Assembly: GCA_050010255.1 (NCBI GenBank)
Contig: JBEKLJ010000001.1
Location: forward strand, 960-64,959
Length of the DNA stretch: 64,000 nucleotides
Direction of reading: 5' to 3'
Source: Bryobacteraceae bacterium
GTDB lineage: Bacteria > Acidobacteriota > Terriglobia > Bryobacterales > Bryobacteraceae
The translations under genes were made by a program, and so were the position numbers. Shown here piece by piece: positions 36,765 to 45,599 of this stretch. Position 1 is the stretch's first letter; every line of letters starts with the position of its first letter. A model generated the notes under the pieces. That model saw only the letters and a program-made list of their open reading frames with translations. It was not told the origin of the DNA and searched no databases.

Positions 36765-37223
36765 TTAGGTGGCGTTCTTCGGAACTTTGGCACCCAGCCT
36801 GCTGGTGATGAGGTCCCAGCGTTCTCGATAATTGTCTGCGTCGCGGTCGAGAATCCAGTACATGAGGCGTTTCCATTCTGGCTTCAACCACGAGGCGACG
36901 AGATTCGAAGGAACGATGAAGACATCTGGGAGTTGATTCGGATGATCCCCCTTGAGGTCCACAAAGGCATAGAAGATAGAGTCGCCCCGCAAGTCCAAGG
37001 CTTTCCTTCCAACATCCCATTCCCAGCGATCTTTGCGCCGCGCACTGCTCGCGGTCTTCACCTGGAATGACACCGCAGCTTGCCCCTTCAAGTCTCCGAC
37101 CATAAGGTCGACCGTTGGAGATCCACCGCGGGTGAGGGCTACCGGGTATCCCATCACAGAGAACCTGTACGCGACGAAGTGCTCGCCCGCCGCTCCCGTG
37201 AGTGCTGTCGCTCGATTGGGCAT
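36765..37223 (-). CDS. hypothetical protein, PD-(D/E)xK / DUF4365-like nuclease fold candidate
   Basis: GAAGEHFVAYRFSVMGYPVA...TVDLMVGD...VSFQVKT fits the G-x-GE...D...(E/Q)xK layout of restriction-endonuclease-like folds. Confidence 0.45.
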   Translation of the reverse strand: MPNRATALTGAAGEHFVAYRFSVMGYPVALTRGGSPTVDLMVGDLKGQAAVSFQVKTASSARRKDRWEWDVGRKALDLRGDSIFYAFVDLKGDHPNQLPDVFIVPSNLVASWLKPEWKRLMYWILDRDADNYRERWDLITSRLGAKVPKNAT

Positions 37224-37291
37224 GTAAACCAGAACCTCCGTTTTGGCTTCTTACCGCCTTGCATTGTACCAGCCATTTCCCTCCGACCCGC

Positions 37292-37870
37292 GACGTCGAG
37301 CTTGAGAACTGGCTAGGCAACTGGCTGCACCACTGCGCGCCCGGCGCTAACGACAGTAAGCAACGCGCGCGTAGCGGTTACCAACTGGTGTACTTCAAGG
37401 GCGGTTACGTCCTGCACATGTTGCGAATGATGCTTCACGACTTCGCGCGCAACGACGACTCCCGCTTCATCGCCATGATGCGTGAATTCGCTTCCACCTT
37501 CCAGAACCGGAACGCCTCGACCGAGGACTTCAAGGCGATCGTCGATCGCCACTTTCGCGCCGACATGCGCTGGTTCTTCGACCAGTGGGTGTACGGGACC
37601 GAAGTGCCGAAAATCACGGTGGAGTATTCATTGACTGATAGCGAGCAGGGCGCGATGTTCGCGGGCACCCTTCGCCAGCGCGGCGTCTCGCCGGAGTTCC
37701 GCGTCATCATGCCCGTCGTGTTCCGCTTCAAGGCTGGCGGCGCCGTCGCCCGGATCACCGCCACGGGCGCGGCGACGCCTTCCCAGTTCCAGTTGCCAGA
37801 GCGGCCCGAGTCGGTCGAGTTCAATCCGCTGGACGCCGTCCTCTGCGAGCTGGAGGTAAAGCGGATGTGA
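37292..37870 (+). pseudogene. M1-family aminopeptidase, C-terminal fragment (5'-truncated)
   Basis: QLVYFKGGYVLHMLRMML (conserved Tyr region that follows the catalytic domain) plus a C-terminal domain. No HExxH-containing N-terminal part lies upstream. Confidence 0.6.
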
Positions 37871-38833: not shown

Positions 38834-39871
38834 TTACTGTCTCAAAATGCGGATCGCGCCGTTCGAGGAGGAAAGGTCGATCAGCGGCCCGCCGCCGTTG
38901 ATCTGGCCTTCCAGGTGGTTCTTGCTCATGGCCCCGCGCATCGTCACGTCGAAATCGCTGCTGATCGAGCCGTTGCTCGTGGATGCCCGAAGCCGCGCCT
39001 TGACCGACTCCGGCAGGCGCACCGTAATCGATGAATTGCTCGTCGAGGCGCGCACGTCGTTGCCTTCCAGCGTCTCCAGCGTCACCTCGATCGAGCCGTT
39101 CGAGCTCTCGAACCGCAGCGGCGCCGCCGGCCTCGGCTTGGAGATCTGCGCGACGATGCTGCTGTTGGACGTGTTCGCCTCGATCGCTCCCGTGATGCGG
39201 GCCAGGCGAATCGAGCCGTTCGACGTCCGCGTGATCATATCGCCCGTCACGCTGTCGGCTTCGATCCTGCCGTTCGACGTATGCGCGTCGACCCGGCCCT
39301 CGATTCTCCGCAACACCACCGTCCCGTTCGAAGTCTCCAGGCGTGCCTCACCCTGGATGTCCTCCACGCGGATCTGTCCGTTCGAGCTCGCGATCCGCTC
39401 CAGCCGAACCTGCCGCGGTACCCGGATGGAGTACCGCGCGCCCATGTTGCCGTGGTAACCACTCGGCCGAACAGTCCGCACTACCACCGAGTTGGCGTCG
39501 GCCCTGGTCTCAATCCTCAGTTCCCGCAGCATCTCCTCGCGGCCGGCGTACTTGGTGCCGGTGATCTGGACCGATTGCTTCTCCCAGCCGATGATCTCGA
39601 TTGAGCCGTTGAAGTTCTCCACGACCAGACGCCCGCCGGGCTTCAGGTCGAAACTGTATTGGAAGTCCTCCCGGTACCGATCGGAGGATTCGATGATACC
39701 CTCCAGGTCGCAGCCGGCCTGGAAGAGCAGCAAACACAGAGTGGACAGAGTGGCAAGAACAAAGGCAGATCTGCGCACGGCGCACCTCACTACAGGTAAT
39801 ACGACGGCCGGAGGCCGGCTGTTCCCGCCAAAGTAGCGGCAACCGCCGCGGGAACCGGCGCTGGCGGCCAC
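38834..39871 (-). CDS. DUF4097-family beta-strand repeat protein (putative lipoprotein)
   Basis: Repeated SNG(S/T)I(R/E)V units. LFQAGC lipobox. The real start may be GTG 39790. Confidence 0.75.
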   Translation of the reverse strand: MAASAGSRGGCRYFGGNSRPPAVVLPVVRCAVRRSAFVLATLSTLCLLLFQAGCDLEGIIESSDRYREDFQYSFDLKPGGRLVVENFNGSIEIIGWEKQSVQITGTKYAGREEMLRELRIETRADANSVVVRTVRPSGYHGNMGARYSIRVPRQVRLERIASSNGQIRVEDIQGEARLETSNGTVVLRRIEGRVDAHTSNGRIEADSVTGDMITRTSNGSIRLARITGAIEANTSNSSIVAQISKPRPAAPLRFESSNGSIEVTLETLEGNDVRASTSNSSITVRLPESVKARLRASTSNGSISSDFDVTMRGAMSKNHLEGQINGGGPLIDLSSSNGAIRILRQ

Positions 39872-40012: not shown

Positions 40013-41179
40013 TCAGCCGACGCCGCCGTCGTAGGGGAACTCGGGCGGCGGCGCGCCTTTCACACCGCCGTAGCTGCGCATCGCCGCGTCGCACACGGCG
40101 TAACCCCAGTTGATGAGCCGCTCCTGGAGCCGCGGCTCCAGCGCCTTCAGCCGCGTCGGCGTCTCCGCCAGCTTCTTTGTCTTCTCGATCGGGCAGGGCA
40201 GCGCATCGCCGAGGGGGTACTCGGCAATGTCGGACCACGTGCTCCAGTACGCGCCCTGGCGTTGCCCGCTGTCGAATGAGCCGATCACCTGGCGCTTGCG
40301 CAAGCTCCGCACCTGGTTGTCGATCAGGTTGGAAACTCGGTACAGGTGAGACAGCCAGTTGCGCTTCGGAACGGCCTCGGCCCCGTACATCCCGCCCCCG
40401 TCGCTGACCAGGATCGTCCGGTACCGCTTCCAGGCGGTTTCCAATCCCAGGTTGTCATAGACGCCCCCATCGGTCAGGACCACCCGGGTGGTGAACGGCG
40501 GCCGCTGGAGATCGGCGCCGCTGTTGGGCGTGTAGTCGCCGTCCTCCAGCTTCAGCTTCAGGGGCGACAGGCACGGCGGGAACGCGGAGGAGGCGGCGAC
40601 GGCCGTCGCCAGCTTCACTTGCGGGTTCTTGACCTCTCCCACGCGCCAGTCCCGCATGTACGGTTTCGAGAAGCGCCACAGCGCCTTCGATTGCACGTTG
40701 GTGGCGTTGATGACGAACCGCGGCCGGTCCGGCAACTGCTGGAGCGTCGCCTCGCCGAACAGGTACTTCCGGTAGGCGCCCGCCACCTTGTCGCTGATGC
40801 TGCCGGGCAGCAGCACGCCGCTGGCGATCGACGTCCAGTCGATGCTCCGGCTCGCCAGCTTCCGTACCGGCGCCACCACCTGCGACTCGAACTCGCCGGC
40901 CACGCCGCCCACGAACCCCAGCCGGAGCCAGTTCAGACCCAGCACGCCGGCCGTGATCGAGCCGCCGGAAACGCTGGAAATGCGCTCCAGCTTGCTCAAC
41001 AGGCCTAGTTGGTTCAGGCGCCACAGGCTGCCGAGGTGGAACAGCATGGCGCGATATCCGCCGCCGGAGAGGCACAGCGCAATCCCATCCTCCAGCTTGT
41101 CTTCCGCCGGATCCGTGGGGATGCGCTCGACCGGCGCCGCTACCGCGATGTCTTCCTTCCTACTTGTGGGATCGGGCAT
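40013..41179 (-). CDS. patatin-like phospholipase
   Basis: 388 aa from the internal ATG 41179. LSGGGYRAMLFHLG oxyanion motif and SSVSGGS nucleophile elbow. No signal peptide. Confidence 0.85.
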   Translation of the reverse strand: MPDPTSRKEDIAVAAPVERIPTDPAEDKLEDGIALCLSGGGYRAMLFHLGSLWRLNQLGLLSKLERISSVSGGSITAGVLGLNWLRLGFVGGVAGEFESQVVAPVRKLASRSIDWTSIASGVLLPGSISDKVAGAYRKYLFGEATLQQLPDRPRFVINATNVQSKALWRFSKPYMRDWRVGEVKNPQVKLATAVAASSAFPPCLSPLKLKLEDGDYTPNSGADLQRPPFTTRVVLTDGGVYDNLGLETAWKRYRTILVSDGGGMYGAEAVPKRNWLSHLYRVSNLIDNQVRSLRKRQVIGSFDSGQRQGAYWSTWSDIAEYPLGDALPCPIEKTKKLAETPTRLKALEPRLQERLINWGYAVCDAAMRSYGGVKGAPPPEFPYDGGVG

Positions 41180-42401
41180 GGCGTATTTGCTCCACCGGGA
41201 GGAGGCAGTCGTACCACAGCTTGCCTTTGACAACGCCTTTGGGCAACTGGCCCGCGGCCGGGCCGGCGGGCGCGCCCTGGACGGGCAAGGAGTCGCTGCG
41301 CACCAGCCGCTCGCCCGTCTGGCGTTCCAGGGCGTCGACCAGCTTGCCGTAGGGAATCGAAGGCCAGGGCGTGTTCTGCGTGGAGAGCATGGCGACGAAC
41401 TTCTGTGTGGGCATGCGGTCCAGCGCACTCCGCGGAGTGGCGTTCTCGCTGCCGTGGTGAGCCACCTTGTAGAAGGTCACCTGGGCGAGCAGTTCCTGGG
41501 CCTTGTCTTTTTCCACCCAGTACTGCCAGTTGCCGTACTGGGCGTCGCCGGCAAAGAGCATGGCCTGGCCCCCGTACCGTAACAGCAGCACCACGCTGGT
41601 GTTGTTGATGGCCTGGTCGAGCGCGAACCCCAGCCGCTCGCTCGTGCTGGCCGCCGCCTCCTCCAGTAGCTTCCGCTCTCTTTCCGTGAGCGGAGCTTTG
41701 CCGCGGTAATCGTACTCCCATTTTGGAGGGAACGGCGCCAGCGCGGTGGCCGCGCCGGCCCCCGCGCCAGCCATGCGCAGGTACTTCTCCGTGTCCGGCG
41801 GGTCCATGCGGGCCAGGAAGTCCTGGTCCTTGGGGGGCCCGAGCACGTGCGCGCTGAGGCCCTTGATGCCGGCGGCGTCTTGGATCTCCTGATCGGCCTG
41901 GCGGTACTCGACCTTGGCCCCGAGCTCGCTCTTGAGCAGGGTCAGAGCCGGCTCGTTCCCGATCAGGTTGGCCACGGCCTCCCGGACCGCGTCAAACCGG
42001 TCCCCGCCCAGCGCCGCGAACTGCCGCCGCAGCCCCTCGGCCAGCGCCAAGTGCTTCGTCTTGAGCCGCGCGGCATCCGGGTCGGACTTGTCCTCGGTCC
42101 ACGGCAACCACACCTCGCGCACGTGCATGCTGCGACGAAACTTCTCCGCCTCGGAGCCGAAACCCGAGAGGTGGTCCTGGTGCGCGTGCGTGGCCACGAT
42201 CAGGTCCAGCTTGCCGCCGGTCTCCTTCAGGATGTCGTCGACCACGGCGCCCATCGTCTTGATGTCGCCGCGCGCGTGCACGCCGCAGTCGATTAAGATG
42301 TGATGCGCTTTGTCCGCGCCCGGCAGCGTCAGCAGGAAGCAATCGCCGAACCCGACGCGGTACATGCGGATTCTGATATCGCGGCTCTTCTTGGCAGGCA
42401 T
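41160..42401 (-). CDS. MBL-fold metallo-hydrolase
   Basis: 413 aa. VGFGDCFLL, ATHAHQDH (HxHxDH) and VAHHGS motifs. Overlaps the patatin start by 20 nt. Confidence 0.85.
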   Translation of the reverse strand: MPAKKSRDIRIRMYRVGFGDCFLLTLPGADKAHHILIDCGVHARGDIKTMGAVVDDILKETGGKLDLIVATHAHQDHLSGFGSEAEKFRRSMHVREVWLPWTEDKSDPDAARLKTKHLALAEGLRRQFAALGGDRFDAVREAVANLIGNEPALTLLKSELGAKVEYRQADQEIQDAAGIKGLSAHVLGPPKDQDFLARMDPPDTEKYLRMAGAGAGAATALAPFPPKWEYDYRGKAPLTERERKLLEEAAASTSERLGFALDQAINNTSVVLLLRYGGQAMLFAGDAQYGNWQYWVEKDKAQELLAQVTFYKVAHHGSENATPRSALDRMPTQKFVAMLSTQNTPWPSIPYGKLVDALERQTGERLVRSDSLPVQGAPAGPAAGQLPKGVVKGKLWYDCLLPVEQIRHARSHK

Positions 42402-44174
42402 CTAAAACCCCCTGTGGATCGCGGCAAAACTCAGGTCCCGTCCCGCGCCGCCCTGAATGTATGTCGCCAGCGCCGACCTCACCCCCACGCGGCCCAGGAA
42501 GGCCCGCTGGCTGGCCAGCCGCCGCTGGCTGTCGATGTGCTTGACGATCGCGTAGCGGACCTCGCCGTGCTGGTTGAGGATGACCGTCGAACCCCCGAGG
42601 TACGTGAACTTCTGCGACTGCGGGTCGGACGGGTCCACGCGCTCCTGGCGTTCCTGCAAGAATTCCACTACGTAGTCGAAGCAAAGCTGTCCGTCCGGCC
42701 CCACCCGGTGCAGCGGGTGGAACGAGAGCACCCGGAACTCCTTCTCCCTTGTAGATAACCCCAGCGGCTCTCGATTCGCCGAGGCCCAGTGGTGGAGGAC
42801 GGTCGCGTTCCTGTCGGTTTGCCGGGGGTTCGGCTCCCCCAGAACGTTGAACGTCAGCCCCGTGCACCGTTTCAGCGGGCGCTTGGGATCCACGACGTCG
42901 GGCGGACGCCAGCGCAGCGCTTCTTCCGAATACGAGCCGACGTCCTCGGGGACGATGCCGCGCGCGCGGAACGCTTCGATGAAAGCCGCGCGGTAACCCC
43001 ACGGGTCCTCGGGCACGAGGTCCGAATCGGCGGTGATGATGGCGCGCAGGAATTCCCCGAAGGAGATGTCCACTGGCGGGGAGTAGTCCAGGGCCCGGAT
43101 ACAGATGTTCGAGAAATGCTGCGCCAGCTTCGACGCCTCGCCCGCCAGCCGGTTGGCAAGATCCGGGTGCAGGTCGCCCTGCGCGCCCACCGCTCCGCCG
43201 GCGCGCCCGATCCGCAATAGGTCGCGCGTCCGCTTGAGGTACACGCTGAAAAACGCGTCGAACACCGCGGCCACCAGGATCGCTCCCCGGTCATGCGGTT
43301 CCAGCGCTGTTTCGAGCAGCCGCGGGTCGGGCTTCTTGTCGAGGGCCGAGCGCAGCGCCGCCCGCATTCCCATCGCGTCGCCGAACTGCCTGGCCAACTC
43401 CACCAGCGGGTTCGGCTTGGCCTCCTCCCCGCGGATCTGCGCCTCTCCCTCGGCCTTGGCGTCGGCCTGGAGCTGGGGGCGGTGCAGATCGCCGCCGGTA
43501 CGCTGAATCGCGTCCAGCACCGCGTCCTTGTAACTGAAGTGCTGGAACAGCGCCACGACGTCGGCGAACGCCTCGTGGAAGGCCGGCGTGTCGGGCCCCG
43601 TCGCGGTCGTGAACTTCTGACGCAGACCGTCGATCAGGGCGTGCGTGGTCTCGTGCACGATGATGTCGTGCGACAGGCACGTGAACACGGTTTGGCCGGG
43701 CAGGTTCGCTCCCACGTCCTCCTCGCCGGCGGCGAAGTAGCCGAACACGATTGCCCGCAGCCCGGGATCGTAATACGCGTTGGCCTCCTCGATTCCGTGC
43801 GGGAAAATGTGCAGCTTCCCATGGTGGGGGTCGGTCTTCGGCCCCCTGTCCGGCGCCCACTTGATCTTGCGCCCCAGCGCCGACTCGAAGCGGCGGATCG
43901 TCTCCATCATGACCGCGTAGACCATCTGCTGATGGAACCGCGGGTCGGACTCGCTCGGCTCGAGCCCTCCCCCGAGCATCACCGCCGGGCTGTCGAGGTC
44001 TACCGGCTCGTAGTACTTGCCGTTGCTCGCGTCGTAGTCGATGACCGCGACGTAGTCGCCCACCGGGCCGGGCTTGACCTTCTCGTAGCGCGCGTTCACC
44101 GTCATGTAGTTGCTCAACTCGTGCCCGCGGCTAGGATCAAACGCGTAAATCTTCAACGGTCGGGAATCCGGCAT
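42402..44174 (-). CDS. cytoplasmic thermolysin-like (gluzincin, M4-like) zinc metalloprotease
   Basis: HETTHAL followed by FHEAFADV (third zinc-ligand Glu). ATG 44174 lies 8 nt downstream of GGAGG. The TAG stop abuts the ATG of the MBL gene. Confidence 0.7.
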   Translation of the reverse strand: MPDSRPLKIYAFDPSRGHELSNYMTVNARYEKVKPGPVGDYVAVIDYDASNGKYYEPVDLDSPAVMLGGGLEPSESDPRFHQQMVYAVMMETIRRFESALGRKIKWAPDRGPKTDPHHGKLHIFPHGIEEANAYYDPGLRAIVFGYFAAGEEDVGANLPGQTVFTCLSHDIIVHETTHALIDGLRQKFTTATGPDTPAFHEAFADVVALFQHFSYKDAVLDAIQRTGGDLHRPQLQADAKAEGEAQIRGEEAKPNPLVELARQFGDAMGMRAALRSALDKKPDPRLLETALEPHDRGAILVAAVFDAFFSVYLKRTRDLLRIGRAGGAVGAQGDLHPDLANRLAGEASKLAQHFSNICIRALDYSPPVDISFGEFLRAIITADSDLVPEDPWGYRAAFIEAFRARGIVPEDVGSYSEEALRWRPPDVVDPKRPLKRCTGLTFNVLGEPNPRQTDRNATVLHHWASANREPLGLSTREKEFRVLSFHPLHRVGPDGQLCFDYVVEFLQERQERVDPSDPQSQKFTYLGGSTVILNQHGEVRYAIVKHIDSQRRLASQRAFLGRVGVRSALATYIQGGAGRDLSFAAIHRGF

Positions 44175-44517
44175 AACACTCGCCTCCAGTTGGACCGTCC
44201 AGCCGCCGACTGTCCGCTGACGTCCAGGTTGAGACAAGAATACTGGAACTCCGGAATGCCTGCAAGAGTGTTTCTTTGATCTGCCCGCAACCGAAGCGGC
44301 CCCGATGAGGGCAATTTCACCTGCGCCTGGCGGACGGCGAGCTGGCGGCTGGCGGATAATCGCGAGAAAGCCGGTGATATTCCGGCCCTATTCCGGGAAT
44401 ATCAGTGGCCAGAGGTGACGCAAGAGCTAGAGCCCGATTTTCTCACGCCGTTCGGAGCGAGGCGCCGCGCGAGGCCGGTAGATTCAAGGCGCGCGACGGC
44501 CCTATCGCGCACGGCAC

Positions 44518-44741: not shown

Positions 44742-45599
44742 TCACCGAGTCCGGCGGACGAATCGGAACTTGCGCAGGCGTAACGCGCCGAGCAGACAAC
44801 CGAGGGCCACCAGTCCAGAGGACCCCGGCTCGGGGATGGGGGCGGCGGCGGCATTGCAGCCGTTTATGTAAGTCTTGCCGCCCAAGGTGTTCGCGGTCTC
44901 CACGAACACACAGCCGTCAATCGTGCCCCCAAGCACCCCACTTCCCCCGTTGTTGGCGGCAATGGTGAAGCTCGTTCCCGCTAGAATGCTTCCCTCAAAA
45001 GTCTGAGGGACGGTGACTGCGGTGATCGAGGCGGTCCTACCAACAATCCAGTAGATGTTCCTCCACTGCGCTTCGTTTATCAGATCGAATGTTAAAGGAC
45101 CGTTGATAGTCAAGTCCTCGGGAATCCTGATAATGAAAACATTACTGCTGTCACCCCCGGCATCGAAGGTCAAAGTAATGTCCGCAGTCGAAGTGACGTC
45201 GGTTGACGTAAACTGGTACACATTGTTGCCATAGAACGTACGGTTGCCCGTGAGATCACCCACCGTCTGCGTGTGTGGCGTGAGTGCATCGCTAAAGGCC
45301 GTATCGAACGCGGTTTCGAAGTCCGTGAACGCCATTCCGACGGTCGAGCCCGGGACGTTCGGCGCCGTATAAAAGGCACCGAGGGTTGCGATCCCCGGCC
45401 CCACCGGCGGCCCGAAACCCGTTATCGTAGTCGTGGCCCCAACATAGCCGACGACCTTAGATTCCCCGGTATTCGAGATCGTGTCGCCGAGCATCCCGAA
45501 AGAGATGGCAGTACCCAAATCCGGCGCGGCGATTGAGCCTCCAAAAGCAGGCACAGCAACCATTACAACCATCAGCGTCCACAGCAATCCCCGTCTCAC
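44742..45599 (-). CDS. ice-binding-like (DUF3494) family protein with PEP-CTERM sorting signal
   Basis: APDLGTAISFGML...NTG...TGF N-terminal pattern, NIYWIVG, FEGSILAG, and C-terminal PIPEPGSSGLVALGCLLGALRLRKFRF. Confidence 0.8.
   Translation of the reverse strand: MRRGLLWTLMVVMVAVPAFGGSIAAPDLGTAISFGMLGDTISNTGESKVVGYVGATTTITGFGPPVGPGIATLGAFYTAPNVPGSTVGMAFTDFETAFDTAFSDALTPHTQTVGDLTGNRTFYGNNVYQFTSTDVTSTADITLTFDAGGDSSNVFIIRIPEDLTINGPLTFDLINEAQWRNIYWIVGRTASITAVTVPQTFEGSILAGTSFTIAANNGGSGVLGGTIDGCVFVETANTLGGKTYINGCNAAAAPIPEPGSSGLVALGCLLGALRLRKFRFVRRTR

Follow-up and report, generated by a model that had tools for sequence, protein, structure and literature searches.

A metalloprotease-like protein co-encoded with a ComEC-type MBL-fold hydrolase in a Bryobacteraceae bacterium: a candidate variant of protease-gated pro-nuclease modules, with a patatin phospholipase as optional accessory

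Contig JBEKLJ010000001.1 of a Bryobacteraceae bacterium encodes, within the 64,000-nt stretch analysed here (the window, to which all coordinates refer unless a comparison locus is named), three consecutive minus-strand genes: g1 (42402..44174), for a zinc-metalloprotease-like, cytoplasmic protein of 590 amino acids; g2 (41160..42401), for a ComEC-type hydrolase of the metallo-beta-lactamase (MBL) fold of 413 amino acids; and g3 (40013..41179), for a patatin/cPLA2-like phospholipase of 388 amino acids. Comparison with other genomes indicates that g1 and g2 are the two core partners of a conserved unit, the former presumably an activating protease and the latter a latent DNase, and that g3 is an optional accessory effector. 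A preliminary description of this DNA, made from the sequence alone, had presented the three genes as one coupled conflict module; its gene limits agree with the open reading frames (ORFs), the outer limit of 44237 being the TTG start of the longest g1 ORF only, in place of which alignment of homologues favours the ATG at 44174.

The genes are tightly packed. The TAG stop codon of g1 (42404-42402) directly adjoins the ATG of g2 (42401), g3 begins within g2, with which it shares 20 nt (41160-41179), and a GGAGG ribosome-binding site, read directly from the minus strand (44183..44187), lies 8 nt 5' of the g1 ATG. These junctions and signals, like the motifs HETTH, FHEAFAD, HAHQDH, HHGS, GGGYRA and SVSGGS, are all present where the preliminary description had placed them, and its statement that the products lack signal peptides agrees with their hydropathy: g1, g2 and g3 have no hydrophobic N-terminus and no transmembrane-like segment (maximum 19-residue Kyte-Doolittle mean <=1.38). 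Its portrayal of the upstream DNA as repeat-dense does not hold, since the 567-bp spacer 5' of g1 contains only short imperfect repeats in two or three copies and a weak 7-nt array (score 36). No consensus promoter or terminator was found in a scan of this spacer and no Rfam family matches it; a tRNA and Rfam scan of the whole window was also empty.

The zinc site of g1 consists of HETTH (residues 174-178; 43641..43655, minus strand), which contains the zinc-binding and catalytic residues H174, E175 and H178, and FHEAFAD (residues 199-205; 43560..43580, minus strand), which resembles the NEAISD of thermolysin and would supply the third zinc ligand, Glu201, together with Asp205. H174, E175, H178, E201 and D205 are invariant in the alignment of g1 homologues, and the motif HExxH...[HN]E[AG]x[AS]D is intact in 146 of 150 representatives of the g1 family, including 69 of 71 multidomain proteins. 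An AlphaFold2 (AF2) model of g1 (pLDDT 72, pTM 0.79) predicts three strands, then the HExxH helix, then a helix with Glu201, an arrangement that in the model is that of a zincin core. Alignment of the family with thermolysin (hhalign, with a query sequence verified against the PDB) is confined to the active-site helices (thermolysin 126-178; 51 columns, probability 72%, E 3.4e-5) and pairs DVVAHELTHAVTD with DIIVHETTHALID and INEAISD with FHEAFAD; 2 of 47 long relatives of g1 reach the Pfam Peptidase_M4 profile (PF01447) at 3e-7. Because the zinc site is nearly universal in the family but the likeness to thermolysin is limited to these helices, g1 is best described, from its sequence, as a remote, cytoplasmic, M4-like gluzincin, and is probably an active protease. 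It shares with thermolysin (peptidase M4) the HExxH motif and a Glu-Ala-x-x-Asp helix about 20 residues downstream, but differs in being cytoplasmic without signal peptide or propeptide, in falling below the Pfam M4 threshold and in possessing extra N- and C-terminal domains. Assignment of g1 as a secreted thermolysin-like enzyme was rejected because it has neither signal peptide nor propeptide. The earlier designation of g1 as thermolysin-type is thus weakly supported, by the active-site helices but not by any Pfam or fold match of g1 itself.

No member of Pfam, NCBIfam, PADLOC or PHROG matches g1, and yet its family is large: among the matches listed there are >8000 clusters at 90% identity, and at 50% identity there are 4985 clusters with E <= 1e-3 and 1491 with E <= 1e-30. 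Pfam annotation is absent from the family members, a few of which are named 'peptidase M4' by NCBI. Proteins of >750 amino acids make up 71 of the best 150 family representatives. The extra domains found in 56 long relatives that were scanned are Peptidase_S8, N-terminal, in 24 (about 43%); DUF2278 in three; a phospholipase C (PLC)-type phosphoesterase in two; and Amidase_2, Amidase_3, TPR-S, DUF7379 (weak) and TerL_ATPase (weak) once each. Because the g1 domain is often fused to Peptidase_S8 with its zinc motif kept, the published 'subtilase-MBL' clade may contain a metalloprotease domain that has gone unnoticed.

Several individual relatives of g1 have features of their own. TPR-S, where fused to g1, is a sensor repeat, and locus L081 (7717-10815) is among the g1-domain fusion cases. 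One protein (P0004) appears to contain a tandem duplication of the protease domain, the first copy having HELVH; it had been considered as a protease-MBL fusion, which was rejected in favour of a duplicated protease domain, and two other long relatives examined as possible protease-MBL fusions (P0008 and P0010) have no Pfam match. At the C-terminal end of g1 (residues 587-590; 42405-42416) the sequence His-Arg-Gly-Phe/Tyr is invariant across the family, preceded by about 25 residues that are variable and modelled with low confidence; this tetrapeptide could be an autoinhibitory or zinc-contacting tail.

The second core gene, g2, encodes a Pfam Lactamase_B protein with a HAHQDH metal-binding motif (residues 72-77; 42171..42188, minus strand) and, as further metal ligands, H315 and H316 of an HHGS motif (residues 315-318; 41448..41459, minus strand) along with D286 in GDAQ; these metal motifs are invariant in the alignment of g2 homologues and >=85% conserved across 69 partner MBLs. 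The PADLOC MBL models that recognize g2 are those of Lamassu (LmuA-MBL, 1.8e-24), DRT (RTasMBL, 3.3e-15) and Avs1 (Avs1a, 4.2e-12). Among PDB sequences the best match of the g2 profile is the beta-lactamase-like (competence nuclease) domain of ComEC, and the AF2 model of g2 (pLDDT 80.7, pTM 0.83) is likewise closest by Foldseek to the ComEC MBL domain (9ic4, E 8.6e-15), followed in second place by the phosphorylcholine esterase Pce/CbpE and then by RNase J and INTS11 nucleases. g2 is presumed to be a DNase.

Homologous MBL proteins have been characterized as gated pro-nucleases: in HamM, Avs MBL and CanC, insertion loops block the active site and are cut at conserved residues by a partner protease (Tuck et al., Science 2025, PMC12799240), and the same conclusion was reached for MBLs linked to Avs2 and Avs4 (Evans et al., bioRxiv 2025, PMC12642450). 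The profile of the g2 family aligns with PflHamM (sequence from Table S1 of PMC12799240) over 293 columns (HamM 2-316, g2 10-345; hhalign probability 97.2%, E 3.7e-11). Relative to the ComEC MBL domain, g2 has a middle insertion (about residues 101-262; 41616..42101, minus strand) that makes it ~115 residues longer between flanking positions (ComEC 79->148, g2 87->271), and the region between the conserved halves is equally long in HamM (70->247) and g2 (92->269). Within the insertion of g2, residues 202-233 (41703..41798, minus strand) are predicted to be disordered (AF2 pLDDT <50), and this candidate gating or cleavage loop adjoins the position at which HamM has its I218 cleavage loop. It contains a conserved Pro223-Phe224 pair (41730..41735, minus strand): across 69 divergent partner MBLs this pair is >=85% conserved and neighbouring loop positions 10-20%, with Tyr207 also conserved. 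A recognition or cleavage site would be expected to show such conservation, and cleavage may occur there. Thermolysin-like (M4) enzymes prefer hydrophobic residues, Phe among them, at P1'.

The association of g1 with g2 is conserved far beyond this contig. In species-representative genomes at least 583 encoding loci were found, of which 80 were kept, from Acidobacteriota, Alpha-, Beta- and Gammaproteobacteria, Myxococcota, Chloroflexota, Planctomycetota, Gemmatimonadota, Bacteroidota and Armatimonadota, a clostridial metagenome-assembled genome (MAG) and a thaumarchaeon (57% identity). A g2 homologue lies directly 3' of the g1 homologue on the same strand in 78 of the 80, the other two loci being cut by contig ends; the same arrangement is kept at all ten plasmid loci, at four metagenome loci and on an unverified 'phage' scaffold. 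Most of the protease-MBL intergenic gaps fall between -4 and +3 nt, and the pairwise distances of the two proteins are correlated with r = 0.90, a value reached by none of 999 Mantel permutations. Identities of 41-60% extend across Acidobacteriota, Proteobacteria, Chloroflexota, Planctomycetota, Bacteroidota, Deinococcota and a thaumarchaeon, and several genomes possess two divergent protease-MBL pairs, a picture of horizontal spread and paralogy. Patatin, in contrast, is encoded at 17 of the 80 loci (12 times upstream of the protease, four times downstream of the MBL and once on the opposite strand), and its distances correlate only loosely with those of the protease (r = 0.30). Clustering of neighbours over the 80 loci revealed no conserved sensor or metabolic partner and nothing recurrent beyond patatin. 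Because the pair is found at 78 of 80 loci, patatin at 17, and no other neighbour recurs, the conserved unit is the protease plus the MBL, with patatin as an optional accessory, and not the trio as the preliminary description had it.

Paralogous copies are frequent. Two divergent pairs lie within 10 kb at each of L048 and L061, one MAG has two pairs (L020 and L027), and protease genes occur in tandem at L010 (8381-11743). The sole protease-MBL match among 50,697 phage records is the unverified scaffold, a 9.5-kb 'Bacteriophage sp.' sequence from human faeces (MT836994.1; L099, 3659-6602).

The accessory gene of the Bryobacteraceae locus, g3, matches the full Pfam Patatin profile (E 1e-18) with its GGGxR, [GS]xSxG and DGG motifs all intact, represented by the oxyanion motif GGGYRA (residues 39-44; 41048..41065), the nucleophile motif SVSGGS (residues 69-74; 40958..40975) and the aspartate of DGG (residues 237-239; 40451..40471), all on the minus strand. 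The likeness to CapV suggested previously is weak. Both are cytoplasmic patatin-fold phospholipases in a conflict context, but the match of g3 to the PADLOC model of CBASS phospholipase effectors is marginal (E 7.8e-4), and the locus has no CD-NTase and no nucleotide-sensing domain; assignment to CBASS was rejected because no cyclase is present among the genes flanking the trio. Among plasmid homologues, the one closest to g3 (59.5% identity) is the first gene of a patatin-S8 subtilase-MBL operon in Sinorhizobium meliloti M270, of which the MBL aligns with the g2 family at 96.8% probability and the S8 protease contains no g1-like domain; this operon (L087, 7058-11325) is on plasmid accessoryB, flanked by insertion sequence (IS) elements. 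Another homologue of g3 adjoins a caspase-hypothetical-MBL locus in S. americanum. One lipase subfamily therefore accompanies protease-MBL pairs of three protease classes, and because it is found beside S8-MBL and caspase-MBL pairs it is not specific to the metalloprotease.

At other loci the accessory position is taken by phospholipase D (PLD), DUF2235, DUF2278, a caspase-domain protein or an SMC-like ATPase. Ten adjacent proteins were compared with PADLOC models: two match the caspase model, one matches DrmC (PLD) and seven, all large unknowns, match none. Caspase-domain proteins are encoded beside the pair at two loci (L046 and L074). On Hymenobacter plasmids (L084, 6568-13340; L092, 5601-13099) an SMC/Rad50-like AAA ATPase is encoded immediately 5' of the pair and an MPN/JAB gene converges on it from the 3' side, which may represent a variant with a sensor of its own.

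In cultured bacteria the module is also found on plasmids, many of which are conjugative, and there it sits in defence or mobile-element regions. In Rhizobium leguminosarum pRle248a, patatin-protease-MBL is directly upstream of Hachiman (DUF1837 plus helicase), with a CBASS cyclase and DarT/macro nearby, and Agrobacterium tumefaciens pAtH25_79a likewise has a patatin-protease-MBL block with Hachiman. The module may work together with Hachiman on these plasmids, as HamM does in HamMAB. The block of patatin, protease, MBL, DUF1837, DEAD/DEAH helicase and DUF3223/DCL genes is conserved between the A. tumefaciens and R. leguminosarum plasmids (L082 and L086, 7815-16900). The module is accompanied by two SIR2 genes, DUF2235 and an IS5 element on Methylorubrum pCMU01; by CHAT proteins, VapC and IS630 in Bradyrhizobium quebecense; and by integrases, Tn3, MPN/JAB, ThiF and DUF4238 in Hymenobacter and Deinococcus. 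The view that the genes form a horizontally mobile, self-contained module of cytoplasmic degradative enzymes is supported, and the swapping of accessory genes and the fusions of g1 resemble the modularity typical of defence systems.

Comparison with the protease-gated MBL modules (HamM with protease-HamAB, Avs1/2/4-MBL, Lamassu and DRT-UG9) shows the same ComEC-like MBL with a long middle insertion, an adjacent, co-evolving protease gene, a conserved residue pair in a disordered loop, and the same modular spread and occurrence in defence islands. The conserved cleavage residues of HamM, VcMBL and CanC are Ile or Gly, to which Pro-Phe would be the parallel in g2 (PMC12799240, PMC12642450). The partner differs: an M4-like zinc metalloprotease here, a trypsin-like serine protease in modules of the HamM kind. 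The order here is protease then MBL, with no known sensor fusion, one evident disordered loop and a phospholipase accessory, and g1 has no recognizable sensor domain comparable to the STAND, Hachiman, Lamassu and CanB components of those modules. Another related system is Canu (CanABC) of Klebsiella aerogenes (PMC12799240), which is also a small stand-alone operon with a separate protease gene 5' of the MBL pro-nuclease, variable accessory genes and a protease unfused to a known sensor enzyme. The Canu protease is caspase/MALT1-like with immunoglobulin-like or TPR domains and is accompanied by CanB, whereas the present locus has a metalloprotease, no equivalent of CanB and, according to Pfam and PADLOC, no caspase. 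The S8-associated MBL clade, listed in PMC12799240 (fig. S2) and PMC12642450, shares with this locus the patatin subfamily and a homologous MBL, but g1 has no S8 domain.

The protease partners in both published MBL phylogenies are trypsin-like, caspase/CHAT and S8 only (PMC12799240, PMC12642450), families to none of which g1 belongs. No metalloprotease partner is mentioned in PMC12799240 and its supplements, in PMC12642450 or in 10.1101/2025.09.03.673762, and a targeted search of the open-access literature for thermolysin or zinc metalloproteases with MBL and defence found nothing. Accordingly, the kind of system is already known, and the metalloprotease partner is probably new relative to this literature and the four libraries of hidden Markov models examined; the stand-alone two-gene form and the recurrent phospholipase accessory are likewise undescribed in the same sources. 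The previous remark that the trio was not recognized as a named defence system stands as regards models for g1 in PADLOC, NCBIfam and PHROG, but needs qualification in that protease-MBL pro-nuclease modules were described in 2025.

Taken together, these comparisons make it somewhat probable that the locus encodes a variant protease-gated MBL pro-nuclease module in which the protease is a metalloprotease, with patatin as an optional second effector. According to this model, g1 and g2 would be co-translated from one mRNA, and g2 would be kept inactive by its ~115-residue middle insertion. Upon a trigger, most plausibly phage infection, g1 would cut the disordered loop of g2 at a candidate site at or near Pro223-Phe224, unmasking the di-metal site; indiscriminate DNA degradation would follow, leading to abortive infection or growth arrest. 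Patatin would add membrane damage and might be licensed by the same protease. The suggestion in the preliminary description that the enzymes are protease-gated agrees with the mechanism established experimentally for homologous MBL nucleases (PMC12799240, PMC12642450), but the core effector is likely to be the MBL nuclease rather than the lipase.

Several observations weigh against this interpretation. No sensor domain or gene is recognizable at the locus with Pfam, NCBIfam, PADLOC and PHROG or among the flanking genes, unlike in the characterized systems, in each of which a sensor is joined to the protease by fusion or in a complex, although some relatives of the pair do adjoin Hachiman or an SMC-like ATPase. 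Foldseek comparison of the g1 model with the PDB and BFVD returned no significant neighbour and no peptidase, and neither the g1 sequence nor the family profile matches any PDB sequence; because these databases contain no structural or profile neighbour of g1, its predicted protease activity depends on the zinc-site motif. A single clearly disordered loop is predicted in g2, and loop 1 of HamM (I118) has no counterpart. The neighbours in the window are of the DUF4097, DsbA-like, PEP-CTERM and M20 peptidase kinds, ordinary envelope and peptidase genes with no link to defence, and many other chromosomal copies likewise have neighbours with housekeeping functions. The idea of a conflict module is favoured by self-containment, horizontal mobility and the defence islands of isolate plasmids, but not by the surroundings of this copy. 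Of the genes in tight adjacency at MAG loci, about half have housekeeping functions, and in Pyrinomonadaceae-type genomes the pair occupies a conserved housekeeping neighbourhood, once next to comEC.

This last arrangement is among the points favouring a role outside defence, in which a cytoplasmic protease with a phosphodiesterase or nuclease could serve regulated turnover of DNA or phospholipid, competence-linked processing or stress-induced autolysis, with the lipases taking part in a route of head-group degradation. The rank of Pce/CbpE as second-best fold match of g2, the high conservation of the protease and the predominance of lipid hydrolases among the accessory genes, nearly all of which are patatin, PLD, PLC-type or DUF2235 proteins, would fit such a role. 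We nevertheless consider it unlikely: across the 80 loci the pair has no recurrent metabolic or competence neighbour, its patchy distribution extends over domains of life, individual genomes have divergent paralogous pairs, plasmid copies lie in defence islands, and g2 resembles HamM and the defence MBL models more closely than it does any metabolic MBL. The lack of a peptidase among the fold matches of g1 also leaves room for g1 to be something other than the protease of g2, namely a zinc-dependent sensor or scaffold, or an enzyme that cuts a phage or host target, with g2 regulated otherwise, for example by the S8 subtilase domain that 24 of 56 multidomain relatives (about 43%) possess themselves and that belongs to a documented class of MBL partners (PMC12642450). 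This arrangement is decidedly unlikely given that no other protease is encoded at the locus or in most family members and that the zinc-site residues are near-invariant even in the S8 fusions.

The translational coupling of all three genes here, the intact catalytic motifs of the patatin and the occurrence of patatin-protease-MBL or protease-MBL-patatin at 17 genome loci and on several plasmids might instead indicate a single stoichiometric effector cassette, whose chief effector would be the patatin, destroying membranes in the manner of CapV, while the protease and MBL would act as processing enzymes or co-effectors. With 63 of 80 loci having no patatin, a variable patatin position, a correlation of distances far below that for the MBL, a marginal CBASS-model match and no adjacent cyclase, so central a role for the lipase is quite improbable. 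Less probable still is an inter-bacterial or polymorphic-toxin cassette, with delivered nuclease, phospholipase and amidase domains and the metalloprotease as a releasing or processing peptidase: accessory and fused domains do resemble type VI effectors (DUF2235, Tle1-like; PLD; patatin; amidase_2/3) and one locus is near genes of an extracellular contractile injection system, but signal peptides are lacking, the module is cytoplasmic and self-contained, and no PAAR, Rhs, VgrG, immunity-gene pattern or secretion genes recur in the neighbourhoods. Each of these four alternatives is contradicted by part of the evidence.

If the locus is a metalloprotease variant of the gated module, a broader proposal can be formulated, which we put forward tentatively and regard as rather less than probable: that g1 and its relatives are a fourth, mechanistically distinct protease class for gated MBL pro-nucleases, forming a widespread two-gene immune module in which a stand-alone, M4-like metalloprotease is both infection sensor and activator, licensing a nuclease, joined in some copies by a phospholipase, and that they are also an unrecognized component of many 'subtilase-MBL' systems. 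Were this so, the module would occur in bacteria and in at least one archaeon and comprise about 5000 or more clusters at 50% identity. Work published in 2025 established that bacterial immunity recurrently relies on the proteolytic licensing of latent nucleases, which has been tied to sensor-fused serine and cysteine proteases; the g1 family would add a zinc-metalloprotease branch that is very abundant in soil bacteria and usually consists of two genes only. Such a branch raises the question of how a module with no recognizable sensor detects infection, and the Pro-Phe pair in the MBL loop offers a concrete candidate cleavage site. The same comparisons reveal a patatin subfamily that is shared by three different kinds of protease-MBL pair.

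The flanking genes of the Bryobacteraceae locus are those previously described, a DUF4097 gene (38834-39871) beyond g3 and an Ice_binding and PEP-CTERM gene (44742-45599) beyond g1. In the Pyrinomonadaceae-type genomes (L095, 8221-14446; L096, 8280-17161, where comEC follows; L001, 12019-13365) the gene order is BirA, GT28 glycosyltransferase, CoaX, a hypothetical gene, the protease-MBL pair and an RlmD-like methyltransferase; the solved structure most closely related to the g2 fold is that of a domain encoded by comEC. Elsewhere in the window, GC content drops to 0.589 between 36000 and 38000, compared with about 0.67 in the remainder, and this stretch contains a truncated Peptidase_M1 C-terminal fragment (37202-37870, plus strand) and an orphan ORF of 152 amino acids (36765-37223, minus strand); a past rearrangement or insertion may have left it behind.

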